Below are positions 25,547 through 55,150 of a DNA stretch of 64,000 bases, piece by piece. Under the pieces are notes generated by a model. That model saw only the letters and a list, made by a program, of their open reading frames with translations, had not been told where the DNA came from and ran no database searches. Numbering within the stretch: position 1 is the stretch's first letter; every line of letters starts with the position of its first letter. A program made the translations under genes and the position numbers. Source of the DNA: an uncultured bacterium (GTDB taxonomy: Bacteria > Methylomirabilota > Methylomirabilia > Methylomirabilales > CSP1-5); contig CAYGBT010000003.1 of assembly GCA_964348275.1 (NCBI GenBank), forward strand, positions 10,819 through 74,818, written 5' to 3'.

Positions 25547-26677
<1,131 letters not shown>

Positions 26678-26800
26678 GGCGCTGGCAGGCTAGGAGGCTA
26701 GTACGCTGGAACGCGAGGACGCCAAAAGGCCGTAAGAGTGTGATTGACTGGAGTCCATCCGAGCCTCCTAGCTTCCTAGCGTTCTAGCGTTTGAGGAGTG

Positions 26801-30307: not shown

Positions 30308-30514
30308 CTACCGTCGAAGCCGTCTATACTGCCGACACAGGATATGCTTCACAGTCGTACACCGGTTCCAGTATTCCCAGAAACCAGGGACCTTGGTGAA
30401 TCCAGAAGCGAGGTCCCGACAGTATCCCGGGATAACCCATTCCTGCGCGTCAGCCTGCCGCCAGAAATAGGGGCAATCTCTTTCGGGGAGTCCTCTTCGC
30501 ATCGGATCGGCCAT
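30308..30514 (-). CDS. Small Cys/Trp-rich protein (68 aa), family not recognised
   Basis: ATG preceded by AGGAAGG at 7 nt; 4 Cys, 4 Trp, basic tail; 47 nt upstream of the radical SAM gene and downstream of a sigma-54 promoter. Confidence 0.55.
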   Translation of the reverse strand: MADPMRRGLPERDCPYFWRQADAQEWVIPGYCRDLASGFTKVPGFWEYWNRCTTVKHILCRQYRRLRR

Positions 30515-30679
30515 GATTGAGCCTTCCTATCACTTGCTTGCCAAATTTCCGATCGTGAGGCCCTCCGGTCCTGAATCACGTCCGAGGGGTACAGCCGCAC
30601 TCCTCCTCGAGTGGTCACTCAACGCAAAAACCTTTGGCTGTTCTTCAAGAAGGAGCCAGACGAGTATACGGTCGTTCAG

Positions 30680-30696
30680 AGCAATGGCAGTGCCAC
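30680..30696 (-). promoter_or_regulatory. Sigma-54 (-24/-12) promoter, copy 1
   Basis: Minus-strand TGTGGCACTGCCATTGCT = TGGCAC-N5-TTGCT, about 165 nt upstream of ATG 30514. Confidence 0.65.
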
Positions 30697-30968: not shown

Positions 30969-31754
30969 TTATTTATCAGAAATTGGGAAGGCGTAGGTCA
31001 GGCCAAAAGTGATCCCCCAATTGTCCGATCCATCGCTCAGGCCGGCGAAGCCGCCAACATCGAATTTCAGTTCACCTGGCGTCGTATACGTAAGCCCTAA
31101 GAGCGCGGTTGCCTCGTCGTCGGCGTCTGGGATTGCCTTCCCCTGGAATTCGCCGACGAGGGCGATCCCATCGGCGATGCTGACCTCAGCCGCCATCGCC
31201 CAGAGAAAGACACCGACGTAATCGGCATCGTCGGGGTGTGGCTCGACTCCACCCCCGAGGTCCAGGATGTACAGGAGGGGTCCGGCCTCTCCCGTGAGGG
31301 CCACGAGACCGGTGACACCGACCCGCCGCGTCTCATCCGGCTGAAACTCCTCCCGGGCCGTGGGAAAAGTGAGGCCGAGTTCGGTGGCGAAAGATGGAGC
31401 CCCCTCCTCACCCTCCCACCAGAGGTTCTTAAAGGTCAGCTCCGTATCGCTAACGCTGCCGAGGGTCTCATCCGCTTCGTCATCGTCCACGAGCTCGAAT
31501 CCGGTGCCGATATCAATTTCGAACCGGTTTACGATGCCGATGTTGAAGGCGGCACTCGGCAGGGCGTAGCTCGTCTCGTCAGCATCATCCCGGGTATTTC
31601 GACTGACGTCGATCCCGAGCTCTATTTCTACCTCTCCAGGGGCCACGACCGCGGCATCGGTGGCGGCGAGGAAGGGCCGGAGGGCATGGGCGTCTTCACC
31701 CAGGATCAGGCCCATGATCCCTCCGGCCATGAGGACAATAGACCCCCACCTCAT
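30969..31754 (-). CDS. Putative outer-membrane beta-barrel protein with Asp/Glu-rich loops
   Basis: Signal peptide (..GEDAHA/LRPF), alternating-polarity strands, acidic loops (DDDEADE, PDADDEA, HPDDADY); resembles MetA-pathway/transporter-type barrels. Start at ATG 31754 assumed. Confidence 0.5.
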   Translation of the reverse strand: MRWGSIVLMAGGIMGLILGEDAHALRPFLAATDAAVVAPGEVEIELGIDVSRNTRDDADETSYALPSAAFNIGIVNRFEIDIGTGFELVDDDEADETLGSVSDTELTFKNLWWEGEEGAPSFATELGLTFPTAREEFQPDETRRVGVTGLVALTGEAGPLLYILDLGGGVEPHPDDADYVGVFLWAMAAEVSIADGIALVGEFQGKAIPDADDEATALLGLTYTTPGELKFDVGGFAGLSDGSDNWGITFGLTYAFPISDK

Positions 31755-31941
31755 TACACGGCGATCCACATCTTCGCCTCGCATCGCCTAAGCCCTCCTA
31801 TCGTCTTGGTGGAAGACGAGGAAAGGGGGGCTTTCGACGAGGCCGTGGTTCGCCCCCCAGCGAAATCTTCTGGTCTTGGCGTTCTGGCTCCCGCTTTACC
31901 TCCTCGCTCGGGGCAGAGACTTGAGCCTGTGCCGGTCAACG

Positions 31942-32730
31942 CTATTTTTTCGGCAGTGTCTGGGAATGAGCGAGCACATCGACAGCTTGCTTGATGTCCC
32001 AACCCAGAACCACCGCCGAAGGCATAGGAGGATCACTCCCGGGATGTCCCATCCGGACTTTATGCAGGAACTCCTGCGGGTTCTTATTGGCCAACGTGCC
32101 GAGGAACTCAGGCTTTTCCTCGCTACCGAAGTTCAACTTCTTCCCGTCAGCTCCGTGACACGCAACGCAAAGACCGGCAAGCGTCTTCCCGCGGCTCGCA
32201 TCTGCTCCGATCGGCTTCTTCGTCGTGTAGTCGATCACCTTGGTCATGTCGACAAGCCCATCGTTGAGAAAGTTCGCGAGATCGGCGATATCTTGGTCCC
32301 GCATGACTTTTGAGAAATCATGTTTTTTATTGGCCGATCCTCGCAGGATTGCCGCCAGTTGCTCGACACCCTTCTTTTGGGCTGCGTCCCACACGCCGGG
32401 GAATCCTGTGCGATGAGAGCCTGACCCGTAGGCACCATCCTTGCCTTGATAGTCCCAGCCATGGCATTCCTTGCAGCGCCACGTAGTATCTCCCTTCCGT
32501 GTGTTGGTAGTCTGGAGGGACCACAGGGGATGGTCACCCTTGGGCGTGGTAGCCCCCGGAACAACTTTCCACCACTTGTCGTATAACAATCCTCCACGGG
32601 CGACACTCTTGGCGTCAGACCCCGCAGCGGCAGCAAGTGAAATCAGCCCGCTCCCATAGTCCGGTTGGAAACTTAGAGTGAGCCACGCTGCCAGAAAAAC
32701 CAAAGCACTCGCGAACATAACCTTTTTCAT
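31942..32730 (-). CDS. Diheme c-type cytochrome
   Basis: Signal peptide; two CxxCH sites (CKECH, CVACH). Confidence 0.8.
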   Translation of the reverse strand: MKKVMFASALVFLAAWLTLSFQPDYGSGLISLAAAAGSDAKSVARGGLLYDKWWKVVPGATTPKGDHPLWSLQTTNTRKGDTTWRCKECHGWDYQGKDGAYGSGSHRTGFPGVWDAAQKKGVEQLAAILRGSANKKHDFSKVMRDQDIADLANFLNDGLVDMTKVIDYTTKKPIGADASRGKTLAGLCVACHGADGKKLNFGSEEKPEFLGTLANKNPQEFLHKVRMGHPGSDPPMPSAVVLGWDIKQAVDVLAHSQTLPKK

Positions 32731-32830: not shown

Positions 32831-33313
32831 TCAGGCTAAGGAATCTTTGCTCCTGAGGCGATCTTGGATCTCTTTGGCCAGCGCTGCCTGCAGCGTTTGG
32901 AATCGTCCACCAATGATACGGGCGGTGTTTTTCATGACAATGTAGCCCAGGCGAATATTTGTCTCACACAAGTGTTGAATATCAGCTTGGCTTATCTGCA
33001 ACACCTCAGAATCTTCTTTCGCGTACGCCGACAACGTGTATTTGTGGGGATGGGTCACCGCCGACCAACCAAACACTGCCCTTGGGACCTTTATTTCGAA
33101 GGGGATTTCTACCGTGGCACTGTAGTACGAGACTCTGGACCGAAGCTCAATCTCTCCCGCGCATACTAGAAACAGGGATGTGGCCTGTTCGCCCTCCTTG
33201 AAGATTTGTTCTCCCTTCTGGAACTTCTTGGTTTTGCACAGCTTTTTGATGGCCGCCAGGTCTTCCGGTCCCAGACCTTCAAAGATGCTGAATCTCACAA
33301 GTTGTTCTGTCAC
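32831..33313 (-). CDS. Stand-alone cyclic-nucleotide-binding domain protein
   Basis: 160-aa cNMP-binding beta-roll pattern (FKEGEQATSLFLVCAGEIEL). Confidence 0.75.
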   Translation of the reverse strand: MTEQLVRFSIFEGLGPEDLAAIKKLCKTKKFQKGEQIFKEGEQATSLFLVCAGEIELRSRVSYYSATVEIPFEIKVPRAVFGWSAVTHPHKYTLSAYAKEDSEVLQISQADIQHLCETNIRLGYIVMKNTARIIGGRFQTLQAALAKEIQDRLRSKDSLA

Positions 33314-33805: not shown

Positions 33806-35032
33806 TTACTTGCGCTTGCCCTTGAGCCCGTCCAGCTCAACCGATCCTCCCCCCATGTACAGCAGATAGGCAATCAGGTCGGCCATCTCCCCTCCCTTGA
33901 AGACCGGCCAGGCCATGTCCTGCTCCAGCATCATTTCTTCCATACTGGACGCGTGATTCCACATCGCAGTGATGACCTCCAGGGGGGTACCAAGGCCCGC
34001 CGCCGTCGCGAGATTCGGCCCCACAGTTTCGCGAACGCCCCCGAAGGAGTGACAGGAGACACACTGTTTCTCCACGATCACAACCCGCCCCCTTTGGGGG
34101 TCCGCCGCCGGGTCGATGAACTGGAAGAAGTAAAGGTAGTTAATAAGATCCGACATCTGTTTCGTGCTGAGAGAGGGCTCCTTGATCCCCATCTCAACCA
34201 TTTTCTCCCACATCTTGGGGCCGTGGTTCCACATCGCTCCGGCGATGCGCATGAGGCTTCCCGTGAGCGTGGTGCCGAGGTCTGGACCCACCTTGGCGCC
34301 GTGGCCTCGGATCGCGTGGCACTCGACGCACCGCTTCTCCCGGTACAGCTTCTCGCCCCGCTCAGGACTTCCCGGCGGGGCGTACACTCGCTCGAGGCCG
34401 CCAGCGACATCCCGGATATAGGCGAGGAGGTCTGGGATGTCATTCCCCTCAAAGGTGGGGCGCGACACGCCCATCTCCCGCATCGTCTCCGCCATCGCCT
34501 TCCCCTTCTTCCACAGGTCAGTCGTCAAAAAGAGGGGAGAAGCGTACCGGCCGTACTTGTCAAGCGCGGGGCCGATACTCCCGCCTCTCCCTCCCAAGGA
34601 GTGACAGGCCTCGCAGCCCTTTTGGCGGAAGAGGCGTGCGCCGAATGCCGGGTCTCCCGGAGGATCGAGGGAGTTTAGGTAGTACAGGAATGCGATGAGG
34701 CTTGCCATTTCCGAGGGCTCGAATGTGGGCCGGGAAACCCTTTTTTCTCGGAGGACCTGCTCCATTCCGGGGAAGTGGTTCCACATCACCCCGGCGATCT
34801 CCAACAGAGGACGGTTCAGGATCCCCCGGCCCAGCTCGGGCCCCGCGACTCCTCCCACTCCGGTGACCGCATGACACTGCAAACACCCTTTCTCGATGAA
34901 CAGTCGGCTTCCTTCAAGGGGATCACCCGGGAGGAGGGCCGAGAGGGCTCCATGGCCGCCAAAGGATGACGCAGGCACAATGCCAAATCCGACCAGTAAG
35001 GCGAGGCCGAACAACAGGGTTTTGACCTTCAT
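33806..35032 (-). CDS. Four-domain (tetraheme) class-I-type cytochrome c, paralogue 2
   Basis: Signal peptide MKVKTLLFGLALLVGFG; CLQCH, CEACH, CVECH, CVSCH, each followed by an (A)MWNH..M block; ATGA overlap with the upstream small gene. Confidence 0.85.
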   Translation of the reverse strand: MKVKTLLFGLALLVGFGIVPASSFGGHGALSALLPGDPLEGSRLFIEKGCLQCHAVTGVGGVAGPELGRGILNRPLLEIAGVMWNHFPGMEQVLREKRVSRPTFEPSEMASLIAFLYYLNSLDPPGDPAFGARLFRQKGCEACHSLGGRGGSIGPALDKYGRYASPLFLTTDLWKKGKAMAETMREMGVSRPTFEGNDIPDLLAYIRDVAGGLERVYAPPGSPERGEKLYREKRCVECHAIRGHGAKVGPDLGTTLTGSLMRIAGAMWNHGPKMWEKMVEMGIKEPSLSTKQMSDLINYLYFFQFIDPAADPQRGRVVIVEKQCVSCHSFGGVRETVGPNLATAAGLGTPLEVITAMWNHASSMEEMMLEQDMAWPVFKGGEMADLIAYLLYMGGGSVELDGLKGKRK

Positions 35033-35280
35033 GGCTCGCTCCGATCCGTGAGGAGCCCCCAGATGACGTAAAGGACCACGCCGAGGAGCACCAGAAAGAC
35101 CGGGATCGCCACTAACGAGATGCCGATAGAGGCAGAAGGGACGTCCCTGAGGTACCAGGCGGTGCGGATCAGGTGGATGATCCAGATCACGATCCCTCCG
35201 ACGAACAGGACAAAACCTCCCGCTATGGCCCACTGCATGATTCTCACGATTCGATCCGGCGCTGCATGCGGGCGATCCAT
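35029..35280 (-). CDS. Small two-TM membrane protein (83 aa)
   Basis: ATG 35280 lies 1 nt after the NrfD-like stop, with GGAGGG as SD; two hydrophobic helices; coupled to the downstream cytochrome. Confidence 0.5.
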   Translation of the reverse strand: MDRPHAAPDRIVRIMQWAIAGGFVLFVGGIVIWIIHLIRTAWYLRDVPSASIGISLVAIPVFLVLLGVVLYVIWGLLTDRSEP

Positions 35281-35281
35281 G

Positions 35282-36646
35282 TCACCCTCCTCCCTTGGCC
35301 GGGATGAATTCGGGCTCACCCGCTTCCGGGAGGTAGGTCAGGAGACGCTCCTCCACCTCTTTGATGCCTACCTCCCGCCCCTCCTCTATCTCCCAGATGG
35401 AGATGATGGGGAAGAGCTTGGTGAAGAGGAGATAAAAGAGGGCGAACAAGGCAAAGCTGGCCGCCGTTTCTCCCAGCTCTACCCACGTCGGCCAGTAGAT
35501 GCCCGCGGGGAATGGCAGCCGTGGGTACGACAGGGTGGGAACGACGATGATGAAGCGCTCAAGCCACATCCCCACCAGGACCGACAGGGACGCGGTCAGG
35601 ACTTTTCCGATGGTTTGCCCGTCGAGCCTCACCAGGCACAGGAGTGGGATGACGAAGTTGGTGAGGATCATCCCCCAGAAGAATGGCCAGAAGGGACCTG
35701 TGAACTTGGCCCAGAAGACCTTCATCTCCTCTGGATCGCCGCCATAGTAACCGGTCAGGTACTCGGTGAATGTGAAGTAGAACCAGAGGAGTGACATCAC
35801 GAGCAGGAGCTGTCCCAGGTACCTAAAATGAACCGGTCTGAGGTAGCTCTGAAGACCGTACATCTTTCTGAAAATGAGCATGGCCACGATGAGGGCGGCG
35901 ATGCCGGAGAAGATGGCCCCTACCACGAAGTACGGCCCGAAAATCGTCGAATGCCACATCGGCTGGAGCGTCATGGAGAAGACGAAAGAGACCACCGTAT
36001 GGACCGAGACGGCGATCGGGATCACGAGGACCGCCATGATGGCAATGGCGCGGTTGAGAACCTTATGCTGACGCTCCGTCCCCCGCCATCCCAGGGCCAA
36101 CACGGTATAAAAAAACTTTCGCTTTCCGAGACGGTCCCTGAGAATGGCGATATCCGGGATCATAGGGATCCACAGGTAGATGAGGCTGGCCGTCAGGTAG
36201 GCGCTGATACTGGTAGCGTCCCAGAGGAGGGGAGACTGGTAGCGGCCGTGATGGATGACGTTCATGGCCCGGTCAGGCCGACCCAGGTCCACCAGGATCT
36301 GTCCGGCGCCGATGAAGAGGACCATCACGGTGATCACCTCAGCCATCCGGGTGATGGGGCGCCGCCACTCGGCCTTCGAGAGGCGGAGGATGGCCGAGAT
36401 GAGCGTCCCCGCGTGGCTGATCCCGATGAAAAAGACAAAGTTGGTGACGTAAAAACCCCAGGAAACCGGCTGGTGGAGCCCGGTGACGCCCAGGCCTTCG
36501 TTGAGCTGGACCGAGTAGGCAAAGCCTCCCCAGAGGACAATGAGAAACAGGATGGCCACGGCCAAGTAGAAATTACGTCCCGTGTGCTCGATCGGAGCGA
36601 GGAGGATGGCATCTCGCATGTCAGTGGTATGTGCCACGAACTTCAC
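35282..36646 (-). CDS. NrfD/PsrC-type integral membrane quinone-interacting subunit (ActC/QrcD-like)
   Basis: Polytopic protein aligning with the ActC paralogue at 46141-47466 from its N-terminus. GTG start overlaps the Fe-S subunit stop (GTGA). Confidence 0.85.
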   Translation of the reverse strand: MKFVAHTTDMRDAILLAPIEHTGRNFYLAVAILFLIVLWGGFAYSVQLNEGLGVTGLHQPVSWGFYVTNFVFFIGISHAGTLISAILRLSKAEWRRPITRMAEVITVMVLFIGAGQILVDLGRPDRAMNVIHHGRYQSPLLWDATSISAYLTASLIYLWIPMIPDIAILRDRLGKRKFFYTVLALGWRGTERQHKVLNRAIAIMAVLVIPIAVSVHTVVSFVFSMTLQPMWHSTIFGPYFVVGAIFSGIAALIVAMLIFRKMYGLQSYLRPVHFRYLGQLLLVMSLLWFYFTFTEYLTGYYGGDPEEMKVFWAKFTGPFWPFFWGMILTNFVIPLLCLVRLDGQTIGKVLTASLSVLVGMWLERFIIVVPTLSYPRLPFPAGIYWPTWVELGETAASFALFALFYLLFTKLFPIISIWEIEEGREVGIKEVEERLLTYLPEAGEPEFIPAKGGG

Positions 36647-37311
36647 CCTTTCAGGTAGATCACCTTGGGCTTTGTCCCGAGCTCTTCCTGGAGCCTCATG
36701 GCCCGTGGGCTCCGGGCGAGCTTTGACACCTCGCTGCCAGGATCGGAGAAATCCCCAAAGACGATGGCTCGGGCGGGACACGCCTCAGCACAGGCGGGAA
36801 CGTATTCCCCCGGCTCGATCCCCCGTTCTTCGGCGCGGGACCGTGCGCGCACCTTCTGGAGACGATGGTGGCAGAAGGTGCATTTCTCCACCACGCCGTT
36901 TGAGCGGACGGAGACGTCTGGGTTCTGCGCTGGGCCCTCTTTCTGGTAAGTGTGCCAGTTGAAGTACTTGGCGTTATACGGGCAAGCGGCCATGCAGAAG
37001 CGACAGCCGATACAGCGGGCGTAAATCTGGGCGACGATCCCCTCCGGGTTCCGGTAGGTGGCGTAGACGGGACAGACCTTCGTGCAGGGAGGATCGTCGC
37101 AGTGGAGACACGGCCTTGGCAGGAACCGGATCTTCCCGTCAGGGTGTTCTTCATCCGCTTCGGTGAGGACCTGCATCCAACTGATGGTCCGCCCTCTGCT
37201 GGCCTCCTTGGCTCCAACGGCCGGGATGTTGTTCTCGGCCTTGCAGGCCATGACGCAGGCCTGGCATCCGGTGCAGCGATCCAGATCGATCACCATCCCC
37301 CAGAGTGCCAT
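36643..37311 (-). CDS. 4x[4Fe-4S] ferredoxin-type subunit (ActB2/QrcC/PsrB-like)
   Basis: CTGCQACVMACK, CLHCDDPPCTKVCP, CIGCRFCMAACP, CTFCHHR...CAEACP cluster motifs. Confidence 0.9.
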   Translation of the reverse strand: MALWGMVIDLDRCTGCQACVMACKAENNIPAVGAKEASRGRTISWMQVLTEADEEHPDGKIRFLPRPCLHCDDPPCTKVCPVYATYRNPEGIVAQIYARCIGCRFCMAACPYNAKYFNWHTYQKEGPAQNPDVSVRSNGVVEKCTFCHHRLQKVRARSRAEERGIEPGEYVPACAEACPARAIVFGDFSDPGSEVSKLARSPRAMRLQEELGTKPKVIYLKG

Positions 37312-37312
37312 G

Positions 37313-39733
37313 TCACGCCCTCCGTATCCTGACCCTGGTGGTGTTGAAGAGGCCGAAGCCCTTGACAGGGTCCAGCTCGCTCGAGATCAGGTCGTTGGGA
37401 TTGGGACCATCGCCCCCGAAAAGGGGCATAAGGACGACGCCGGGAAGCGTGCCATCATAGAGCTTGGCCTGAAGCCTGATTCGCCCCTTGGAAGATTCCA
37501 CCCAGACCCAGTCGCCGTCGTTGATGGCCAGTTTCTCGGCCGTCTCTGGGTGAACCTCGATCCACTTCTTCCAGGATGCTTCGACGTGGACCGCGGGCTG
37601 CTCCAGGAGCCACGGCTGGTTCTTTCCGCCCCCGACGGGCCGGGTCACAAGCCGGTAAGTGATCAAGCGGAGGGAGGATACTTCCGGCTCCTGTTCCTGA
37701 GCGGAAGGGATCGTAACGGCGGGAAGAAAGAGCAGGTCTCCCCGATCCCACCCCCCGATGGCGCTCACAAAGCGACCTTTTTTCCCCTCGCGCTTCACGG
37801 CCTCATCCACCCACCGCTTGAAGCGGCTCGAGTAAAACTCGAACTTCCCAGACGAGGTCGTAAGGAGGGCTTTCCGGCCAACTGGGAGGCCTGTAGGGTC
37901 CCACCATACTCCCCGCTTGAGCAAAGCGTTCCAGAACTCGTCGTAGTTCTTGAACTCGGGGATCCAGTATCCCTGGCGCTCCAGGATTTTCCTGAGCGAT
38001 TCCTCGGCATGGATCGAGACCACGTATCCCCGCCCTGCCTCGTAGAGTCCTCGGGCTCCTTCGTGAAGGAGGGCCTCGAAGGTGTTCCACGAAAGGCTTT
38101 CGGCAATGGTGCCGCCCAGAGCCTTCGAGATCTGGAGCAGCACGTCACCCGTGTTGCGGGTTTGGTGGAGGGGGGTCGCAGCAGGCCGGGCCAGGCTGAA
38201 GCAGGTGAAGCCAGCCAAATGTGTGACCTGGTCGTCCTGCCACCGCTCCAGATAGGGGTGGTCTGGCAGGATGAGATCGGCCAAAGCGCTGGATTCATCC
38301 AGAAATGGAGAGAAGCTAACAACGAAAGGAACCTGGTCCATCGCTCTGGCAAAAGCTTCTTTAGCCGGATGGTTGGCCAGCGGATTGGTGGCGAAGAGGA
38401 AGAGAGCGTTGATGGGATACGGATCCCCGCTCAGAATCTTTTCTGGTACAGCCTGGGAAGCATCGGAGACCAGGAAGTATTCCCCCAGCCCCGCCCCATC
38501 GATCCTCGGTTTGGCAAGTGCATCCTTTGCGGCCTTGTCTCGCTTAACCGGACGAAGCGGGGCCAGCGGCAGCTCGCCCTGGATCAGGAGGCCGCCGTGG
38601 ACGCCGATGTTTCCAATGAGGGCATTGAGGCTGTGGATGGCCATCCGGGTGTGAAGATCGTCAGGGCCGTACGATGGTCCCCGCTCGCCGATAACAAGGG
38701 CCGGCTTCATCGTGGCAAGATCCCGGCCGATCTCGAGGATAACATCTGCGGGGACGCCGGTGGTCTGCGAAACGGTGAACAGGCCATACTCACTGAGCAC
38801 CAGCTTCTTGAACCCCGTGTGGTGCTGACCGGTTCTGTCCACCCAGTCCTCAAAGCCGAACGTGTGTGTGTCCAAGAACTCTTGGTCAATGAGCCGTTCC
38901 CGGATCAGCACATTGGCGATCCCTAGGGCGAGGATCCCGTCCGTGCCGGGGATGATTGGGACCCACCGATCTGCCTTGGCCGCAGTCTGGGAGCGTCTGG
39001 CATCCACGTGAACGAGCCGGCCCCTCGGACGGTCGCCCGCCCCGCGCAAGCCGGCGAAGGCAAGGGAGGAATGCACCGGACCCATCCAGGATTCCAGAAG
39101 ACCGGCCCCGAAGGAGAGGATCAGTCGGGTCTCAGCGATGTCATAGCCCAGCGGGCTCGTCACTCCCTGCATCAGGTAGTGGGCGAGGGCAGGTCTCTCT
39201 GGCGAGAAGCAGCGGACCCGGATGTAGTTTGGACTCCCGTACGCCTCGGCGAAGCGTTTCCAGAGCGTGTCCCGATAGCCGCGGTACTGTCCCCCCAGGA
39301 TCGCCACGGTGTGAGACAGGCCCTGATCGCGAAGCGCAGCAAGGCGCGTTGTTACCAACCGTAGAGCCTCCTCCCACTCAATCGGACGCAAGCGCCCCTT
39401 CTTTTCATCCCGCACCATCGGCCCCTTCAGGCGGTGGGGGTCGTAGAGGAGCTGGAGTCCCCCAAACGCCTTTGGGCAGAGGGCTCCCCGATTGACGGGA
39501 TGAAGAGGGTTCCCTGAAATTCCCACCGCTTCCCCGTCCAGCGTCCGGACCAGGAGACCACAACCTCCCGGACACTGCTGACAGATGGAGGGGACGACGA
39601 CCTCCTCTGGGGTGGCCCAACGTTCAAAGTCCTGGCGTGCCTGGTCGGCCCTGGTCAGTCGGCCTCTCACCAGGGCGGCGGCTCCGGCAGTTCCACCCAC
39701 AGCCTGTAGGAATCTACGTCGCGTGACTCGCAT
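37313..39733 (-). CDS. Tat-exported Mo-bisPGD-fold subunit (ActB1/QrcB/PsrA-like)
   Basis: MRVTRRRFLQAVGG twin-arginine signal; N-terminal CQQCPGGCG..(x)..C Fe-S motif; molybdopterin-oxidoreductase-like domains. Confidence 0.85.
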   Translation of the reverse strand: MRVTRRRFLQAVGGTAGAAALVRGRLTRADQARQDFERWATPEEVVVPSICQQCPGGCGLLVRTLDGEAVGISGNPLHPVNRGALCPKAFGGLQLLYDPHRLKGPMVRDEKKGRLRPIEWEEALRLVTTRLAALRDQGLSHTVAILGGQYRGYRDTLWKRFAEAYGSPNYIRVRCFSPERPALAHYLMQGVTSPLGYDIAETRLILSFGAGLLESWMGPVHSSLAFAGLRGAGDRPRGRLVHVDARRSQTAAKADRWVPIIPGTDGILALGIANVLIRERLIDQEFLDTHTFGFEDWVDRTGQHHTGFKKLVLSEYGLFTVSQTTGVPADVILEIGRDLATMKPALVIGERGPSYGPDDLHTRMAIHSLNALIGNIGVHGGLLIQGELPLAPLRPVKRDKAAKDALAKPRIDGAGLGEYFLVSDASQAVPEKILSGDPYPINALFLFATNPLANHPAKEAFARAMDQVPFVVSFSPFLDESSALADLILPDHPYLERWQDDQVTHLAGFTCFSLARPAATPLHQTRNTGDVLLQISKALGGTIAESLSWNTFEALLHEGARGLYEAGRGYVVSIHAEESLRKILERQGYWIPEFKNYDEFWNALLKRGVWWDPTGLPVGRKALLTTSSGKFEFYSSRFKRWVDEAVKREGKKGRFVSAIGGWDRGDLLFLPAVTIPSAQEQEPEVSSLRLITYRLVTRPVGGGKNQPWLLEQPAVHVEASWKKWIEVHPETAEKLAINDGDWVWVESSKGRIRLQAKLYDGTLPGVVLMPLFGGDGPNPNDLISSELDPVKGFGLFNTTRVRIRRA

Positions 39734-39741
39734 CGCTTCCC

Positions 39742-40296
39742 TTACCGATGACAGGCGTTGCAATCAGTCAAGATTGCTCGCTGCGCCGCCGCCTCCGGTT
39801 TCACTTCTCCTGCTTCGTTTCCTCTGGACCACTCCCACTTCTCGTGACAGCGGATGCAGTCGTCCATGGTGAGGATCTTGAGGGCGCGCGCGGGGGGGCG
39901 GTCAAGGGTCTCCATCGGTCCATGGCAGGTCTGGCACTTCACCTTTGCCACCACCACGTGCGTGCGGTGAGGGAAGAAAACGTGAGAGGGGAGTCGCCAG
40001 ACGCGCTTCCAGGGGATCTCCTCGCCCTTTTCTTCGAAGGCTTGGAGCCTCTTCAATTCCTGGCTCTCGGGCTCCCCCCCCGAATGGCAGCCAAGGCACA
40101 ACGTGGTGGGAGGACGGCCTGCGACGACATCCTTCTCCGCTCGTTGGTGGCAGTTCGTGCACGTCAGGCCCACCTCCAGGTGGGTCTTGTGGGGGAACTC
40201 GATCGGCTGCCTGACAGCGGGCTCCGCCAACAGACGCCATGCTCCCCACGCGAAGAGGCCCAGGGCGAGCAGACCGACCGCAGCGAGCCACCTCAT
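39742..40296 (-). CDS. Pentaheme c-type cytochrome (ActA/NrfB-like)
   Basis: TM/signal anchor MRWLAAVGLLALGLFAW; CTNCH, CLGCH, CQTCH, CIRCH, CNACH. Confidence 0.8.
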   Translation of the reverse strand: MRWLAAVGLLALGLFAWGAWRLLAEPAVRQPIEFPHKTHLEVGLTCTNCHQRAEKDVVAGRPPTTLCLGCHSGGEPESQELKRLQAFEEKGEEIPWKRVWRLPSHVFFPHRTHVVVAKVKCQTCHGPMETLDRPPARALKILTMDDCIRCHEKWEWSRGNEAGEVKPEAAAQRAILTDCNACHR

Positions 40297-40483
40297 GGTG
40301 TTTCCCCGCGCTCGGCCCCTTGCGTTTGTCCCATAGCAGCCGGCGCCCCGCATCGGCCGTCGGCATGGTGTCCGTGAAGCCTTGATGGCACAGCCACCCT
40401 GACTGTGGTGAGAGGGGGTATCCAGCGTTTCTCCGTAGCGCCGCCCCCGTTGGTGTTCGTGGGGAAAAAACCCCGCAGGCCCT

Positions 40484-41827
40484 TCACCGGTTCTGCCTCA
40501 GCGTCTGGAGGTAAGCAACGAGGTCAGCCATCTCGTCTTGGCGGAACTGGGGCCAGGTGACCCCTTTAACCTCGGTTACCCGTTCCATGACCAAGGCGTG
40601 GTTCCACAATATTGAGATGACTGCGGCAGGCGAGACAAGGTGCTTCACCCGGGCGAGGTCGCCCGCGACCTTCCCGCCCTTCCCACGGACCGAATGGCAC
40701 TGCAAACACCCCTTGTCCTTCACCAGCTTCCGTCCCTTGCGGGGTTCGGTCGGTCCGCCGAAGTATTGGACAGAGTAAAGGTAGGCGACAAGGTCCGCCA
40801 TCTCTTCCGCCCGGAGTTGTGGGATGGAGATTCGCTTGGCCTTCATCGCCTTTATCATCGCCGGGGTCTTGTTCCACATCGCTGTCGCAAACTCAGTAAG
40901 GCTCCGGTGAACTCCTCGCTCGCCAAGGTCAGGCCCGAGCCGACCGCCCCGTCTTCCAATGCTGTGGCACACACGGCAGCCCTTCTCCACGAACAGCTCG
41001 CGCCCTTCGTCGGCGCGGCCGGGCAGGACATACAGCGGTTCCTCCTCCGGCTCCGGCGAGGCGGATTTGAGGTAGGCGATCAGATCGATGAGCTCCGTTC
41101 CCTTAAATGTGGGTCGCTCTATTCCTCTTGCCCGCATGGCCTCGGCCATGGCGGGGCCGTGGTTCCACATCGCCGTCGCGACATAGATCGGCGAGCCATA
41201 CTGCTTGAGCAAGTCGAGGTTAGGGCCGATCACGCCGCCAGTTCCACCCACCTGGTGGCAGATCACGCACTGCTTCTCGATGAAGATTTCTCTACCGGTC
41301 TCGGGATTCCCAGCGGGATCAAAGTAGTTGAGGGTATACAGAAAGGCGATCAGATCGCCGGTCTCCTGCGGACTGATGTGAGGGTGGGAGATCCCGAGCT
41401 CACGCATCTTTTCGGCCATGCGGGGAAAGTGGTTCCACATGGCCGCGGCAAGATCGTAGAGCGAGCGGGGACGCGAGATACGGCCGAGATCGGGCCCGAC
41501 CTTCCCGCCCTTCCCGTTCACGGCGTGACACTCGGTACATCCCTTAGCCCCGAAGACCCGCGACCCGACAACCGGGTTGTGGGTCGGGCTGAGAAGTTGC
41601 TGGGCGAATGCCAGTCCCAGGGACCAAAGGAGCAGAAGGACAACAGATATCAAGGAGAAGAAATAAGCTGGAGGAAAAGTGATAACGCCGCCCCGGGCAG
41701 CGCCAGAGCGAGGGATCTCGGCCAGATCCGGATGGCCGAGAAATTTCGTTTCGCAACAAGAGGAAGGGGTTCTCCCTCTCGCCAGCGATTCCCAGGCGGG
41801 TTGTGTGCGCTGTCGTCTGATCCTCAT
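40484..41827 (-). CDS. Four-domain (tetraheme) class-I-type cytochrome c, paralogue 1 (start uncertain)
   Basis: CTECH, CVICH, CRVCH, CLQCH with MWNH blocks. The 562-aa ORF start (42172) lies inside a regulatory module, so ATG 41827 or a later codon before the TM segment SLISVVLLLLW is more likely. Confidence 0.75.
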   Translation of the reverse strand: MRIRRQRTQPAWESLARGRTPSSCCETKFLGHPDLAEIPRSGAARGGVITFPPAYFFSLISVVLLLLWSLGLAFAQQLLSPTHNPVVGSRVFGAKGCTECHAVNGKGGKVGPDLGRISRPRSLYDLAAAMWNHFPRMAEKMRELGISHPHISPQETGDLIAFLYTLNYFDPAGNPETGREIFIEKQCVICHQVGGTGGVIGPNLDLLKQYGSPIYVATAMWNHGPAMAEAMRARGIERPTFKGTELIDLIAYLKSASPEPEEEPLYVLPGRADEGRELFVEKGCRVCHSIGRRGGRLGPDLGERGVHRSLTEFATAMWNKTPAMIKAMKAKRISIPQLRAEEMADLVAYLYSVQYFGGPTEPRKGRKLVKDKGCLQCHSVRGKGGKVAGDLARVKHLVSPAAVISILWNHALVMERVTEVKGVTWPQFRQDEMADLVAYLQTLRQNR

Positions 41828-41951
41828 CCGAGTTCGAATGATCGAGAGCTCCCCTGCTAGCGCAGTGGTTTGAGGAGGAGAAGAGCAAAGAACCTCGCCG
41901 TTTGTAATCGTTACATGCGCAGATCCGGTGGCAGACTCGGGGTCCGTGGAA

Positions 41952-41968
41952 GCAAAGGCGGTGCCACA
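41952..41968 (-). promoter_or_regulatory. Sigma-54 (-24/-12) promoter, copy 2
   Basis: Minus-strand TGTGGCACCGCCTTTGCT = TGGCAC-N5-TTGCT, about 125 nt upstream of ATG 41827. Confidence 0.65.
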
Positions 41969-42436: not shown

Positions 42437-42551
42437 TTACGGTTGCCGCCTTTTCAAGGTCTTCAGATATCTTTCGACATCCCGGACCTGCTGCTGCAAT
42501 AGCGTCGTGCTCCACTCGGGCGCAGAGGTCCCTTTCGCTGATCGCGGACAA
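42437..42551 (-). pseudogene. Fragment duplicating the 3' end of the diheme cytochrome gene at 43041-43709
   Basis: Encodes ..AKG..PEWSTTLLQQQVRDVERYLKTLKRRQP*, compared with ..AKGFHGSPYMPEWRTTLSQQQIQDVMEYLKTFKKPNP* in the intact gene; no start and no heme site. Confidence 0.6.
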
Positions 42552-42554: not shown

Positions 42555-43028
42555 CTATTTCTTTGCCAATGTCTGGGCATGGGCCAGCACATCGACACCT
42601 TGCTTCATGTCCCAGCCGAGAACCAGCGCCGAAGGCATGGGAGGATCGCTACCCGGATCTTTCACCCAAACCTTGTGTACGAACTCTTGCGGGTCCTTAT
42701 TGGCGAAGGTGCCGACGTACCTGGGCTTTCGCTCAGAGCCGAAGTTCAGCTTCTTCCCGTCAGATCCGTCGCACGGCACACACAGATGAAAGAGCCTCTT
42801 TCCACGGCTCGCATCCCCTCCGATCGGCATGTTGGCCCTGTGGTCGACGTATTTGGTCATGTCTACAAGGCCATGCTTGAGAAACTTCGCACGGTCGGCA
42901 ATATCTCGATCCCGCATGACTGAGGAAAAATCATGTTTGCGATTGGTCGATCCTCACAGGATGGGCGCCAGTCGCTTGATGCTCTTCTGTTGGGCCGCGT
43001 CCCAGACACCGGGAAATCCTGTACGATG
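42555..43028 (-). pseudogene. 5'-truncated, inactivated paralogue of the diheme cytochrome c gene at 31942-32730
   Basis: Collinear with the last ~157 codons of 31942-32730 (HRTGFPGVWDAAQ...VLAH.QTL.KK*). In-frame TGA at 42954-42956, heme motif CVACH changed to CVPCD, first heme domain absent. Confidence 0.7.
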
Positions 43029-43040: not shown

Positions 43041-43709
43041 TTACGGATTAGGCTTTTTGAAGGTCTTGAGATACTCCATGACATCCTGAATCTGCTGCTG
43101 CGATAACGTGGTCCTCCACTCGGGCATATAGGGGGAGCCGTGAAATCCTTTGGCCCCCCCCATGAAGATGGCTCGGGAGATTTCCTCTTCCCGCCCCTCG
43201 ATGACAAATTCCTCGGAAGTGAAATCCCTTGGCGTCACACCGACCAAGTTCTTGGCGGCGGGCCCTTGTCCATCCCCTCGGGATCCATGACACGCTTGGC
43301 AGAAGGTGTTGTAAATATCCTTGCCCGCCAGGATGCTTACATGTTTGCCCGGCACTGCGAGGGTCCGGATATACGCAATGGCATCGCGAAGCGCCTCTTC
43401 CTTCAGCGACTCAATGACAGTTGCCATGGGCATATGCGCAGTGTCGGGACGCCCCTTTCTTTGTGTGAGCGTGGAAACGATCTGCTGATTAGACCTGCCT
43501 CCGAGGACTGCGGGGTTGGTAAAATCGGGTAGCGGTGTAGCGATATATTGGGCAGCCGGGCCATCTCCCCGGCCGTAACGACCGTGACATGTCCAGCAAA
43601 AGGTCATATATACCTCTTCCCCCTGGGGAACCACCGCTTGGGCCTGTGGCTGAGCGGCAACCCCGCCTGCCATCAAGAGGAGTCCGAGAATCGCCATCCC
43701 CGCTCTCAT
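43041..43709 (-). CDS. Diheme cytochrome c (c4-like)
   Basis: Signal peptide; CWTCHGRYGRGDG and CQACHGSRGDG class-I motifs. Confidence 0.8.
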   Translation of the reverse strand: MRAGMAILGLLLMAGGVAAQPQAQAVVPQGEEVYMTFCWTCHGRYGRGDGPAAQYIATPLPDFTNPAVLGGRSNQQIVSTLTQRKGRPDTAHMPMATVIESLKEEALRDAIAYIRTLAVPGKHVSILAGKDIYNTFCQACHGSRGDGQGPAAKNLVGVTPRDFTSEEFVIEGREEEISRAIFMGGAKGFHGSPYMPEWRTTLSQQQIQDVMEYLKTFKKPNP

Positions 43710-43718
43710 TTCGCTCCC

Positions 43719-44219
43719 TCACTTCGCCTGCACGTGCCGAATGAAATTGACGATGTCCCAACGCTCCCGGCGTGAAAGGGCGTCCCCCTGACCAGGCATG
43801 AGGGCACCCCCATTCCGGATGGTACCATACATGAACCCGTCAGTTCGTTGCCGGAAAATCTCCAGGGTGAGGTCGGGCGGAGGAACAAATTTGGTCGCGA
43901 CAGGCCCATCCCCCTTCCCATCAGGGCCGTGGCACAGGGCGCAGTAGATCTGAAAGAGCCGCTTTCCGTTTTCGATGGACGCGGCAGTCGGCTGCACAGG
44001 ATTGCGCAACTTCTCTGATGCTTCGATCCGGTCCATGCGCGGCTCTTTTCCTTGCCTCGGGATTGAGCCAGGCGGGGGGAGCCGCGGGTCCTCCTGAGGT
44101 CGGATGGAGGGCTGTTTCTCCATATCGGTGCTCCAGGGCCATCCATGGGCAAGGCTTACCCCGATGAGCACGAGGCCCACTGCCGTCGCCAGGGACCGGA
44201 AGAGCTCTCTGACGGCCAT
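43719..44219 (-). CDS. actE: Monoheme cytochrome c subunit of ACIII (ActE-like)
   Basis: Start placed at MAVRELFRSLATAVGLVLIG (signal/anchor); single CALCHGPDGKGDG site. Confidence 0.7.
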   Translation of the reverse strand: MAVRELFRSLATAVGLVLIGVSLAHGWPWSTDMEKQPSIRPQEDPRLPPPGSIPRQGKEPRMDRIEASEKLRNPVQPTAASIENGKRLFQIYCALCHGPDGKGDGPVATKFVPPPDLTLEIFRQRTDGFMYGTIRNGGALMPGQGDALSRRERWDIVNFIRHVQAK

Positions 44220-44298
44220 CCTCTTCTCACGCCAGAGGACGCGCCGGCTTCCAGGTCTGTCCCTGGAACAGGTGGGACTGGCGTGGATGCTGCCGGCC

Positions 44299-46139: not shown

Positions 46140-46140
46140 C

Positions 46141-50391: not shown

Positions 50392-50444
50392 TACCGTCCG
50401 ATGTCTGAAGTCCGCCTCTCTGAGCCCTCAACCCTGAACTATTT

Positions 50445-50948: not shown

Positions 50949-50960
50949 CGTAACAACAAA

Positions 50961-53608: not shown

Positions 53609-53614
53609 GGCCCC

Positions 53615-55149: not shown

Positions 55150-55150
55150 C

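Follow-up and report, generated by a model that had tools for sequence, protein, structure and literature searches.

A sigma-54-type operon for a putative membrane respiratory complex that is related to ACIII and Qrc and matches neither

Seven consecutive genes in a 64,000-nucleotide stretch of DNA from an uncultured bacterium of the Methylomirabilota (hereafter the window) raise the question of which respiratory complex they encode, and in which direction electrons would pass through it. The original prediction described seven minus-strand genes in the order of a four-domain cytochrome c, a pentaheme cytochrome, a Mo-bisPGD-fold subunit, a separate Fe-S subunit, an NrfD-type membrane subunit, a small two-TM protein and a second four-domain cytochrome c. 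Coordinates and gaps confirmed this order and these features (Table 1). The genes run from 41827 to 33806 as one operon, with gaps between successive genes, from cytT1 to cytT2, of 187, 8, 1, -4, 1 and -4 nt. The GTG start of the NrfD gene overlaps the Fe-S stop codon (GTGA), and the cytT2 start overlaps the end of the small TM gene (ATGA). Together with synteny and natural gene fusions (see below), these overlapping starts and stops mark genes that behave as one unit and not as unrelated ones.

Table 1. Genes and promoter element of the operon, and candidate regulatory genes, in window coordinates
Feature	Position	Strand	Properties
cytT1	41827-40484	(-)	447 aa counted from ATG, 4 CxxCH
c5	40296-39742	(-)	184 aa, 5 CxxCH, N-terminal TM helix
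Mo-fold subunit	39733-37313	(-)	806 aa, RRRF Tat motif, PF04879+PF00384+PF01568
Fe-S subunit	37311-36643	(-)	222 aa, 16 Cys
NrfD subunit	36646-35282	(-)	454 aa, GTG start, PF03916
small TM protein	35280-35029	(-)	83 aa, 2 predicted TM helices
cytT2	35032-33806	(-)	408 aa, 4 CxxCH
sigma-54 type -24/-12 promoter element TGGCACCGCCTTTGCT	41951-41966	(-)	exact consensus match
PAS histidine kinase	25547-26677	(+)	Pfam HisKA/HATPase/PAS
NtrC-type sigma-54 activator	26798-28267	(+)	Pfam Sigma54_activat/Response_reg/HTH_8

Sigma-54 control had also been proposed, and the promoter element was indeed found: TGGCACCGCCTTTGCT lies 124 nt upstream of the cytT1 ATG and is one of two exact consensus matches in the window, compared to 0.05 expected. 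In at least 12 related loci, the first gene of the cluster is preceded, at 30-100 nt, by a sigma-54-like element (0-1 mismatch), and in at least 13 a sigma-54 activator is encoded within 8 kb of the cluster; in L081, a divergent kinase-kinase-activator set adjoins the operon. In the case of the window, the PAS histidine kinase and the NtrC-type activator may be regulators of the operon.

The same gene set was syntenic in about 40 other species-level genomes with labels from about ten lineages. The arrangement is therefore not due to chance, and the operon represents a conserved family of uncultured soil and groundwater bacteria and not a rare one. Wherever the contig of a clade A/B locus continues beyond NrfD, the locus contains c5, the Mo-fold, Fe-S and NrfD subunits, the small TM protein and one or more tetraheme cytochromes; a reordered gene set was detected in Acidobacteria, Syntrophales and Calditrichaeota. 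cytT2 is encoded downstream of NrfD in all relatives whose contig reaches that far, in most of them immediately behind the small TM gene. The bracketing of the core by two cytochromes, as originally described, is true at this locus but peculiar to an NC10-type subclade, as most relatives carry both downstream. A second NrfD-like gene is present in few relatives (L014, L083). The literature searched contained no account of this combination of genes; in NCBIfam, all subunit scores were below the family cut-offs and no characterised family has the same gene set, in line with the original claim of a distinct variant.

The relationships of the core were then derived from its four subunits. c5 is a membrane-anchored pentaheme cytochrome (TM helix at residues 4-22; alternative ATG at 40353). 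Among solved proteins it best matches ActA, in four ACIII structures with E 8e-22 to 3e-17. It shares 34% identity with the window's ActA (E 2.5e-34) and can be classed by sequence as an ActA/QrcA homologue. The Fe-S subunit, which matches Pfam Fer4 families and has no signal peptide of its own, shares 49% identity with the ActB2 of the window (E 5e-74). Its 16 Cys, arranged in four groups, are all conserved, one of them being absent from the window's ActB2; four [4Fe-4S] clusters are predicted, and the [3Fe-4S] signature common to ACIII and Qrc is not present. The NrfD subunit, with about 10 TM helices, appears clearly to be of the ActC type, its best solved matches being ActC of 6f0k, 6btm, 6lod and 8k9e (E 3e-70 to 8e-62), with 38% identity to the window's ActC (E 2e-98). 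Of the half-channel residues listed for R. marinus ActC (PMC5928083), it keeps 13/13 on the cytoplasmic and 5/6 on the periplasmic side. At the quinol site, two of three charged residues are changed (His139 to Asp, Asp253 to Val), so that the quinone chemistry may differ from that of ActC.

In the case of the Mo-fold subunit, the picture is less uniform. It is 30% identical to the window's ActB1 over 824 aa (E 4e-95), its best solved matches are ArrA (1.5e-63) and PsrA (4e-51), and its NCBIfam scores for QrcB, PhsA and ArrA are nearly equal (267, 251 and 247 bits). The FS0 motif CX2CX3CX27C is invariant, and the PGTD Asp is kept, a position at which relatives without cofactor mostly carry Glu; the canonical Mo-ligand column, however, is variable within the clade (S/A/P/D/E/H). 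Clades A and B share an invariant, clade-specific cysteine, Cys175. The AF2 model of this subunit reached a pLDDT of only 39.7. Altogether, the homologies to ActA, ActB1, ActB2 and ActC bear out the ACIII/Qrc-type core module that had been recognised. This core stands equally near to ACIII and to Qrc. Judged by gene content, residue signatures and scores, it fails the defining tests of ACIII, Qrc and the catalytic Psr/Arr enzymes; the operon would thus encode a membrane respiratory complex that is related to ACIII and Qrc and matches neither.

Outside the core, cytT1 and cytT2 each consist of four tandem class-I cytochrome c domains (in cytT1, Pfam Cytochrom_C in 4 stretches). cytT1 has a Sec signal ending in AFA before QQ and an uncertain start codon, its orthologues having ordinary signal peptides; cytT2 also has a signal peptide, its AF2 model has a pLDDT of 77.5, and no whole-chain match was found in the PDB. 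The two are clear paralogues, as had been proposed: they are colinear, with 44% identity over 357 aa (E 4e-107), and at 3/4 positions the best match of a domain is its positional counterpart. A MWNH..M block had been described after each heme site. The Trp, and the Met seven residues after M/L, are invariant in 8/8 domains, but 'MWN' occurs in only 6/8, the remaining two reading LWNH and LWKK. The heme domains are thus predicted to be class I with His/Met ligation and an invariant distal Met. The 83-aa protein had no Pfam or NCBIfam match above threshold, and its family comprises only 48 clusters among 1.84 billion representatives; it is kept in relatives, with a conserved loop motif D[VT]PSASIGIS. 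In natural fusions it is joined either to the C-terminus of NrfD (P0251, P0253) or to a tetraheme cytochrome (P0254, P0285), and these fusions argue for one physical complex.

Taken as a whole, the best reading, which we consider probable although well short of certain, is one periplasm-facing, proton-coupled quinol/quinone:cytochrome c oxidoreductase of the ACIII/Qrc superfamily, which probably connects the quinones of the membrane with high-potential c-type cytochromes of the periplasm. The ActC-like NrfD subunit would provide the quinone site, and the four [4Fe-4S] clusters of the Fe-S subunit together with the membrane-anchored, ActA-like c5 would form the electron wire. The 83-aa subunit would hold both four-heme His/Met cytochromes, cytT1 and cytT2, on the complex, and their eight hemes would lengthen the wire in the direction of soluble or outer-membrane partners. 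As NrfD keeps both proton half-channels of ActC, the complex probably couples electron transfer to the movement of protons. The Mo-fold subunit most likely serves for Tat export and as a scaffold, like ActB1 and QrcB, and not as a catalyst. Sigma-54 and an NtrC-type activator would drive expression. Concerning direction, we infer as first choice the oxidation of menaquinol towards periplasmic acceptors, with the cd1 nitrite reductase and oxidases as candidates and, in relatives, decaheme/porin conduits. The cautious wording of the original prediction, a distinct quinone:cytochrome or substrate:quinone oxidoreductase, is supported and corresponds to what the evidence allows.

About two-fifths of the weight goes to the reverse direction, i.e. 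quinone reduction from high-potential donors driven by the proton-motive force. A complex built for this purpose would take electrons from periplasmic high-potential cytochromes and pass them uphill to the quinone pool so that NAD(P)H can be formed, a reading that we regard as unlikely and nevertheless the most serious of the rivals. Electrons would reach these cytochromes from nitrite oxidation or, via decaheme/porin conduits, from the extracellular oxidation of Fe(II)/Mn(II); the complex would then have the role proposed for CymA or for the ACIII-like clusters of iron oxidisers. In relatives, 8 loci have a decaheme MtrA-like gene and an MtrB/PioB porin gene upstream of the operon and in the same orientation, and 2 further loci have the two on the opposite strand; this neighbourhood also counts for our best reading. 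Of the 8, seven belong to the 23 loci of the clade A/B genome scan that have 3.5 kb or more of sequence upstream, and the eighth is L084, fetched separately on a metagenome contig. Monoheme cytochromes sit between this pair and the complex genes. In L084 and related loci the genes run from decaheme and porin through monoheme class-I cytochromes to the complex, an order that speaks for reverse flow and presumably mirrors the mtoA-mtoB-mtoD-cymA clusters of iron oxidisers. The window itself, however, contains no MtrAB-like genes, and sequence alone cannot separate oxidising MtoAB/PioAB from reducing MtrAB, nor can electron direction be read from it. Moreover, nirS is directly upstream of the operon in L083 and nearby in L018, which fits forward flow, and some hosts are labelled Syntrophales or Desulfobacterales, lineages not expected to oxidise metals lithotrophically.

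Next to the operon, the window also encodes a canonical ACIII, together with a heme-copper oxidase and an Nxr-like enzyme. The ACIII cluster begins about 1.2 kb upstream of the operon. Its actB gene (47467-50391), at a distance of about 5.6 kb and not of 3 kb as given originally, codes for a fused protein of 974 aa with Mo and Fer4 domains. The contrast noted originally, a split B subunit in the operon and a fused one in the ACIII, holds. With this ACIII available for the forward reaction, there would seem to be no need of a second quinol:cytochrome c oxidoreductase, which favours another direction or another partner. In addition, the NrfD proton channels could run backwards, and a wire made up of [4Fe-4S] clusters only has a lower potential than that of ACIII, which includes a [3Fe-4S] cluster. 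For iron oxidisers, an ACIII-like role in uphill transfer has already been proposed (PMC4643136).

A genuine Mo/W-bisPGD enzyme of the Psr/Phs/Arr lineage, with periplasmic small-molecule redox chemistry at a Cys175-ligated metal (the substrate being e.g. a sulfur or arsenic oxyanion) and with the cytochromes and quinone as electron partners, seems improbable to us. It would account for the three complete Pfam domains with a Tat signal and for PhsA and ArrA scores that almost equal the QrcB score. The invariant FS0 motif, the PGTD Asp, the invariant Cys175 near the ligand loop and the 16-Cys Fe-S subunit, which resembles PsrB, ArrB and thus the catalytic CISM enzymes, fit it as well and count against our best reading. 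The position of Cys175 differs between alignments: in a pairwise alignment, which fits this reading, it falls on the PsrA Mo ligand Cys173, but profile-profile alignment to the closest Cys-bearing relatives, ungapped in the loop, puts it two residues before the variable ligand column, which counts against the reading. Furthermore, the subunit keeps 0/6 loop positions typical of the Cys-bearing group and only about 28% of 34 discriminating positions, and at the ligand loop Cys is missing altogether from more distant relatives that have the same cytochrome partners. Cys-bearing relatives are without the pentaheme subunit, and pentaheme-bearing ones are without the canonical Cys. Scores for the catalytic NCBIfam families are all far below cut-off, and the 10-helix ActC-type NrfD is associated with non-catalytic partners (PMC6303296).

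Finally, it is very improbable that the complex is a plain QrcABCD orthologue to which accessory cytochromes have been added (QrcABCD being the cytochrome c3:menaquinone oxidoreductase of sulfate reducers): the best NCBIfam matches of three subunits are QrcA, QrcB and QrcC, and some sources call homologues 'menaquinone reductase, molybdopterin-binding-like subunit', but the scores stay under the equivalog cut-offs (81 vs 180, 267 vs 440, 278 vs 400, and for QrcD only 41 vs 570), the genuine ACIII subunits of the window score about as well on these models (319, 227 and 87 bits), the [3Fe-4S] signature is missing, the partner cytochromes are class I His/Met and not tetraheme c3, and NrfD keeps ActC channels that are reported as not conserved in QrcD (PMC6303296).

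Compared to known systems, the operon shares with the catalytic CISM enzymes with NrfD anchors (PsrABC, PhsABC, ArrABC, TtrABC) the A-B-C architecture, Tat export, FS0 and a 16-Cys Fe-S subunit, and the best solved Mo-fold matches are among them (ArrA, PsrA). It differs in the missing canonical Mo-ligand Cys, in the added pentaheme subunit and eight class-I hemes, in an NrfD of 10 helices vs 8-9, and in scores far below the family cut-offs. With Qrc of sulfate-reducing Desulfobacterota it has in common the gene order (multiheme cytochrome, Mo-fold, Fe-S, NrfD, with B and C separate) and the best NCBIfam matches for three subunits; these matches cannot tell Qrc from ACIII, since on the QrcB model the genuine ActB of the window scores at least as high. 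Unlike in Qrc, NrfD is ActC-like and not QrcD-like, the Fe-S subunit has no [3Fe-4S] signature, the putative partners are high-potential class-I cytochromes instead of cytochrome c3, and the hosts are mostly not sulfate reducers.

The ACIII-like act clusters of neutrophilic iron oxidisers (actAB1B2CDEF; PMC4643136) show the same split into ActB1 and ActB2 and the same CX2CX3CX27C motif, as well as a link to cytochromes of extracellular electron transfer, which is genomic in the case of the operon and a hypothesis in theirs. They are set apart by description, since they keep ActD, ActE and ActF and are without the tetraheme cytochromes and the 83-aa subunit. With ACIII itself (ActABCDEF; 6F0K, 6BTM, 6LOD, 8K9E), the operon shares a membrane-anchored pentaheme ActA homologue, a Tat-exported Mo-bisPGD-fold module that lacks the canonical ligand and precedes an Fe-S module with four clusters, a 10-helix ActC-type NrfD with both proton half-channels conserved, and a predicted periplasm-facing orientation with wiring to class-I cytochromes; its core subunits are 30-49% identical to those of the window's own ACIII. 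The differences are the split B subunit, also found in the ACIII of iron oxidisers (PMC4643136), the 16 Cys in place of a 3-Cys [3Fe-4S] site, and the Asp and Val at the quinol site. As originally described, ActD, ActE and ActF are absent, and the operon adds the 83-aa two-TM subunit and two four-heme cytochromes with eight class-I heme domains.

The seven genes that had been described as a closely packed minus-strand operon were borne out in content and order by the gene calls, the spacing and the Pfam domains (see table below). The order is cytT1, a pentaheme cytochrome (c5), a molybdopterin-fold (Mo-fold) subunit, an Fe-S subunit, an NrfD-type membrane subunit, an 83-aa two-helix membrane protein and cytT2, where cytT1 and cytT2 are tetraheme cytochromes.

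Features of the operon and its surroundings in the window, with the closest counterparts in the neighbouring alternative complex III (ACIII)
Feature	Position	Strand	Description	ACIII counterpart (window)
Operon, seven genes	41827-33806	minus	intergenic distances 187, 8, 1, −4, 1, −4 nt	
cytT1		minus	four class-I cytochrome c stretches (Pfam)	
c5		minus	c3/c7-type cytochrome, five CxxCH, N-terminal membrane helix at residues 4-22	ActA, 34%, E 2.5e-34
Mo-fold subunit		minus	806 aa; Fe4S4, Molybdopterin and Molydop_binding domains (Pfam); RRRF Tat motif ahead	ActB1, 30% over 824 aa, E 4e-95
Fe-S subunit		minus	222 aa; Pfam	ActB2, 49%, E 5e-74
NrfD subunit		minus	454 aa; GTG start overlaps stop of preceding gene (GTGA)	ActC, 38%, E 2e-98
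Small TM protein		minus	83 aa; two predicted membrane helices; no family match	
cytT2		minus	four class-I cytochrome c stretches (Pfam)	
Mo-enzyme gene, another	62582-63964			
Respiratory island	43041-60742	minus	ACIII, heme-copper oxidase, Nxr/Nar-like enzyme	
ActA	50445-50948	minus	canonical ACIII	
Fused ActB	47467-50391	minus	canonical ACIII; 974 aa	
Rest of canonical ACIII		minus	ActC; ActD with PF11821; ActF-like; monoheme ActE-like; diheme cytochrome (ActD, ActE and ActF within 43719-46139)	
120-aa ORF	42555-42917	minus	between ACIII and cytT1	
Short stretch	~42440-42500		just downstream of the 120-aa ORF; resembles a cytochrome C-terminal end	
cNMP-binding protein	32831-33313	minus	stand-alone	
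Diheme cytochrome	31942-32730	minus	class I, 262 aa	
Beta-barrel protein	30969-31784	minus	271 aa, predicted outer-membrane; weak PF13557 match	
Second exact sigma-54 element	30680-30695	minus	upstream of the 89-aa ORF and the radical-SAM/SPASM gene	
89-aa ORF	30349-30618	minus		
Radical-SAM/SPASM gene	29139-30260	minus	TIGR04053 score above cut-off	
Crp/Fnr-family regulator	28396-29094	minus		
PAS histidine kinase and NtrC-type sigma-54 activator	25547-28267	plus		

To place this operon among related genomes, one genome per species was scanned, which gave 79 loci, and the gene set was found to recur in both closer and more distant relatives. The closer ones (clades A and B, 45-80% identical) carry, in this order, c5, Mo-fold, Fe-S, NrfD, the small membrane protein and a tetraheme cytochrome in every locus whose contig extends past NrfD. 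A second tetraheme cytochrome usually comes next after the first; in the window and in L002, L016 and L036 it lies upstream instead. An extra NrfD-like gene occurs in a few of these loci, and in L083 (14966-16453) and L014 (5082-6590) such a divergent gene, about 35% identical to the first, sits between the small protein and the cytochrome, which recalls an ActF-like addition. Clade A/B loci are labelled as Rokubacteria, NC10/Methylomirabilota, Binatia, 'Deltaproteobacteria', Syntrophobacteraceae, Verrucomicrobiia, Pyrinomonadaceae, Deferrimicrobiaceae, Desulfobacterales and Pseudomonadota. The distant relatives (37-42% identical) hold the same gene set in Syntrophales, Calditrichaeota and Desulfobacterales, and the Acidobacteria show the order tetraheme, c5, tetraheme, Mo-fold, Fe-S, NrfD. 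The exact sequence of the window's Mo-fold protein has no database record; in the species representative nearest to it, 'candidate division NC10 bacterium CSP1-5', this subunit is 80% identical.

The operon had also been placed under sigma-54 control, and an exact −24/−12 element does lie 124 nt upstream of the first ATG, being one of two exact matches in the window against 0.05 expected. A scan for sigma-70 promoters and terminators gave nothing above the shuffled expectation. In at least 12 relatives, sigma-54 elements (0-1 mismatch) are found 30-100 nt upstream of the first cluster gene, and in L036 the element precedes the upstream tetraheme gene, same as in the window. NtrC-type activators lie within 8 kb of the cluster in at least 13 loci from four lineages, and L081 has a kinase-kinase-activator set divergent from the operon; the 46% identity between its activator and that of the window is a level typical of the family and no proof of orthology. 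Just downstream of the window's operon, a PAS histidine kinase is paired with an NtrC-type activator, and genes for a Crp/Fnr-family regulator and for a stand-alone cNMP-binding protein lie close by. The other exact sigma-54 match precedes an 89-aa ORF and a TIGR04053 radical-SAM/SPASM gene related to the heme-modifying AhbD and NirJ; the two may share a regulon.

The two large cytochromes are indeed paralogues, colinear and 44% identical (E 4e-107). In three of the four positions the domains are closest to their positional counterpart, so that the four-domain gene was duplicated after the internal repeats had arisen. The MWNH..M block predicted at each heme site stands as regards its Trp and Met, whereas 'MWN' itself occurs in six of the eight domains, the others reading LWNH and LWKK. 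All eight domains, and 32 homologues as well, share without exception the Trp and the Met seven residues after the M/L; this Met is likely the sixth heme ligand. Both proteins have ordinary Sec signal peptides and are annotated only in generic terms. When an AF2 model of cytT2 (pLDDT 77.5) was compared with the PDB by Foldseek, only generic class-I domains were matched and no whole-chain analogue.

The 83-aa protein does not significantly resemble ActD (E 0.018 over 26 aa) or ActE. Its loop motif D[VT]PSASIGIS is conserved from Rokubacteria to Calditrichaeota, and in Syntrophales a different two-TM protein of 97 aa takes its position. The family is small, with only 48 clusters among 1.84 billion representatives. 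Natural fusions occur in 4 of these 48 clusters: in P0254 and P0285 the protein is joined to the N-terminus of the tetraheme cytochrome, and in P0251 and P0253 to the C-terminus of NrfD, which argues that the three proteins touch each other.

Upstream, the same strand encodes a complete canonical ACIII, in the order ActA-B-C-D-F-E and together with a diheme cytochrome, as well as a heme-copper oxidase (COX2, COX1, cytochrome c). It also encodes an Nxr/Nar-like type II DMSO-reductase set that includes an EB_dh subunit and a NarJ-type chaperone. An ACIII is adjacent in L002 and L026 too, thus the complex occurs alongside ACIII rather than in its place. The solved ActB1 of R. marinus has no cofactor. 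The window's fused ActB has a full FS0 Cys motif in its B1 part and the expected 3-Cys site in B2, and this ACIII may carry an extra cluster. Between ACIII and cytT1 lies a 120-aa ORF, truncated and paralogous to the C-terminal half of the diheme cytochrome downstream of the operon; in this ORF the heme motif CVACHG has decayed to CVPCDG, therefore it is probably a gene remnant. The downstream diheme cytochrome is followed by a predicted beta-barrel protein. L015 and L084 have this pair after the complex too, and five further loci have only the cytochrome there; the pair may form a small outer-membrane cytochrome/porin partner of the complex. An EB_dh protein of about 320 aa (heme-b, ethylbenzene-dehydrogenase gamma-like) directly follows the tetraheme cytochrome in 11 relatives, e.g. 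L001, L023, L082 and L083, and the window's operon contains no such gene.

Comparison with solved structures placed the NrfD and c5 subunits close to ACIII. NrfD gave full-length matches to ActC only (four structures, 3e-70 to 8e-62), with partial matches to ActF (9e-12 to 6e-05), and all four significant matches of c5 were ActA chains (E 8e-22 to 3e-17). Like ActA, c5 is a pentaheme cytochrome with an N-terminal membrane helix, and like ActC, the operon NrfD is of the 10-helix type. NrfD was aligned to R. marinus ActC and compared at the channel and pocket residues listed in PMC5928083. It keeps 13 of 13 cytoplasmic and five of six periplasmic residues of the proton half-channels, and since most of these ActC residues are reported to lack conservation in QrcD (PMC6303296), this makes the operon NrfD ActC-like. 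The quinol pocket is, unlike that of ACIII, altered: in R. marinus numbering His139 is replaced by Asp and Asp253 by Val, with Asp169 kept, and Tyr323 is Thr. Among about 60 aligned related NrfD subunits, Asp139 is near-universal, Thr323 is found in most, and position 253 is hydrophobic in all (Val/Ile/Leu; Val in every clade A/B locus). The window's own ActC has the canonical residues at all these positions. Judged by residue spacing alone, Asp120 of the QrcD pocket might be equivalent to His139 of ActC.

Further differences from ACIII concern the Fe-S wire and the composition. The B2 part of ACIII holds one [3Fe-4S] cluster, at a 3-Cys site, and three [4Fe-4S] clusters. The operon Fe-S subunit, in contrast, has all 16 Cys, and so do its counterparts in all cytochrome-linked relatives. 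The absence of the Cys103 equivalent is the [3Fe-4S] signature; this position is Thr in the window's ActB2, and the Cys is also absent in a Qrc-like group of relatives. As predicted, the B subunit is split here into Mo-fold and Fe-S genes 1 nt apart and fused in the neighbouring ACIII. The split alone does not disqualify ACIII, because split ActB1/ActB2 is reported in the ACIII of iron oxidisers (PMC4643136). The predicted lack of ActD (PF11821), monoheme ActE and the second NrfD-like ActF was likewise confirmed: none of them was found in the operon, which has the small membrane protein and class-I hemes instead, and all three are encoded in the adjacent ACIII.

The other near relative is Qrc, the menaquinone reductase of sulfate reducers. 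The best NCBIfam matches of the operon core are QrcA, QrcB and QrcC, all below cut-off (81/180, 267/440 and 278/400 bits against cut-off; QrcD 41/570). An identity as Qrc drawn from these matches was dropped: on the same models the genuine ActB of the window scores 319 and 227 bits and its ActA 87 bits, as well or better, and therefore the operon proteins belong to the ACIII/Qrc superfamily and not to Qrc. In Qrc, the proximal cluster of QrcC is [3Fe-4S], QrcB has no redox cofactor, and the electron donor is the periplasmic tetraheme cytochrome c3 of a sulfate reducer. The operon, unlike Qrc, has a 16-Cys Fe-S subunit without the [3Fe-4S] site expected for QrcC, and its encoded partner cytochromes are class-I His/Met proteins. 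The window contains no sulfate-reduction genes; ACIII, heme-copper oxidase and the Nxr-like enzyme are there instead. None of five related loci tested reached the Qrc cut-offs. A related group from Desulfobacterota-type MAGs (L048, L052, L054, L059, L061, L065, L080) combines an ActA-like pentaheme cytochrome with Mo-fold, Fe-S and NrfD subunits; its Mo-fold has no ligand Cys, its Fe-S subunit shows the [3Fe-4S] signature, tetraheme cytochromes are absent and the scores stay below the Qrc cut-offs. It looks like a further unnamed sister family.

Whether the Mo-fold subunit holds a cofactor or serves as a scaffold was considered next to the catalytic molybdoenzymes Psr, Phs, Arr and Ttr. Like these, the operon has a Tat motif and an FS0 motif on its A subunit and 16 Cys on its B subunit; unlike these, it has no conserved Cys, Ser, Asp or SeCys at the canonical Mo/W ligand position. 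The FS0 motif (CX2CX3CX27C; C51, C54, C58, C86) is invariant, but it is not discriminating, as ActB1 of the window, of the cofactor-less type, keeps it too. As cofactor discriminators, FS0, the DPR/PGTD motifs and a Lys after the fourth Cys were all rejected, being conserved in cofactor-less-type relatives as well. The check proposed on Mo-ligand and pterin-binding residues found the nucleotide-binding motifs conserved in every Mo-fold group and the ligand column variable. Relatives without the pentaheme subunit have an Arr-type 'HSSICADG' loop carrying the ligand Cys. In the window's clade the column holds S/A/P/D/E/H (by hhalign, Ser177 in the window protein), and an invariant Cys175, in the context R-C-[LFM]-x-P-E, stands two residues ahead. 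The profile-profile alignment is ungapped through the loop, which confirms this offset; when the protein is aligned pairwise with PsrA, which has three more residues in its loop, Cys175 falls on the ligand Cys173. The loop might be rearranged so that Cys175 ligates metal. The ligand loop is free of Cys in distant relatives that retain the same cytochrome partners (Acidobacteria, Syntrophales, Calditrichaeota). At 34 positions that discriminate Cys-bearing from cofactor-less proteins the clade keeps about 28%, none within the loop, which is indicative only because the reference set is mostly one lineage. Scores against catalytic families are far from their cut-offs (PhsA 251/694, ArrA 247/1600, TtrA 67/1750 bits). 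An AF2 model from 25 close homologues was unusable (pLDDT 39.7). In a neighbour-joining tree the cofactor-less and Cys-bearing groups interleave, and since topology and rooting are unreliable the tree was used for clade definition only. Altogether, a role in scaffolding and Tat export is more likely than catalysis, and we regard a real metal site in this subunit as quite improbable.

We propose that the operon encodes one periplasm-facing complex with its quinone site in the ActC-like NrfD subunit. Electrons would pass between this site and, in turn, four [4Fe-4S] clusters, the five c5 hemes and the eight His/Met hemes of the two tetraheme cytochromes, which the two-TM subunit would dock, and the conserved channels would couple this transfer to proton movement. 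Taking both directions of flow together, we consider such a complex reasonably probable. Within it, the forward direction, i.e. quinol oxidation to periplasmic cytochromes, is favored tentatively: class-I hemes are expected to be of high potential, the channels are ActC-like, and nirS adjoins in some relatives, where it abuts the operon (L083, with heme-d1 biosynthesis genes alongside) or lies near it (L018).

The opposite direction, somewhat less probable and on balance unlikely, would be a 'reverse ACIII' driven by the proton-motive force, feeding the quinone pool with electrons from high-potential donors outside the cell or in the periplasm. Such donors would be Fe(II)/Mn(II) via decaheme/porin conduits, or nitrite via Nxr, with the eight His/Met hemes as a collecting wire. 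A canonical ACIII encoded next door and the all-[4Fe-4S] wire speak for this direction, as does the gene order of decaheme, porin, monoheme cytochrome and complex, which resembles iron-oxidiser clusters. In L006, L016, L020, L025, L028, L030, L041 and L084 the operon is directly preceded, on the same strand, by genes for a decaheme MtrA-like cytochrome (10 CxxCH) and an MtrB/PioB porin, often with monoheme class-I cytochromes between the pair and the operon; in L004 and L008 the pair is on the opposite strand. Among the 23 clade A/B loci of the genome scan with at least 3.5 kb of upstream flank the pair is found in eight (six co-directional, two opposite), a count that leaves out L025, with a shorter flank, and L084, fetched separately. 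If true, a reverse ACIII would be a widespread, unrecognised inner-membrane electron entry point, and would provide the step of quinone reduction that is still lacking to explain lithoautotrophy in Rokubacteria, NC10-type bacteria, Binatia and Acidobacteria.

For the proposed complex in either direction, the family is encoded in many abundant uncultured lineages of soil and groundwater (Rokubacteria, NC10-type Methylomirabilota, Binatia, Acidobacteria), and its direction and coupling would decide how these hosts link denitrification or extracellular metal redox to the quinone pool, and how much energy is conserved. It would also offer a comparison case for the debated proton pumping by ActC, with channels kept, quinone pocket changed, no ActF and an all-[4Fe-4S] wire. 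The automated names 'QrcB' and 'selenocysteine-containing dehydrogenase' for these genes are misleading.

To our knowledge, only a handful of quinone-linked respiratory complexes has been characterised: bc1/b6f, ACIII, Qrc, the NrfD/CISM enzymes and CymA-type cytochromes. That the gene set already belongs to a characterised family was not found: no curated family model names the operon proteins, and the literature searched in full text gave no description of the set. Reviews of NrfD complexes, searched by keyword, likewise yielded no complex of this kind (PMC8076601, PMC6303296). The nearest published systems are an ACIII-type cluster noted beside Nar/Nxr genes (PMC10732223) and the iron-oxidiser ACIII with split ActB, which keeps ActD, ActE and ActF (PMC4643136). 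In conclusion, the operon family, of which no member is characterised, is built of familiar modules but stands apart in its composition and diagnostic residues.
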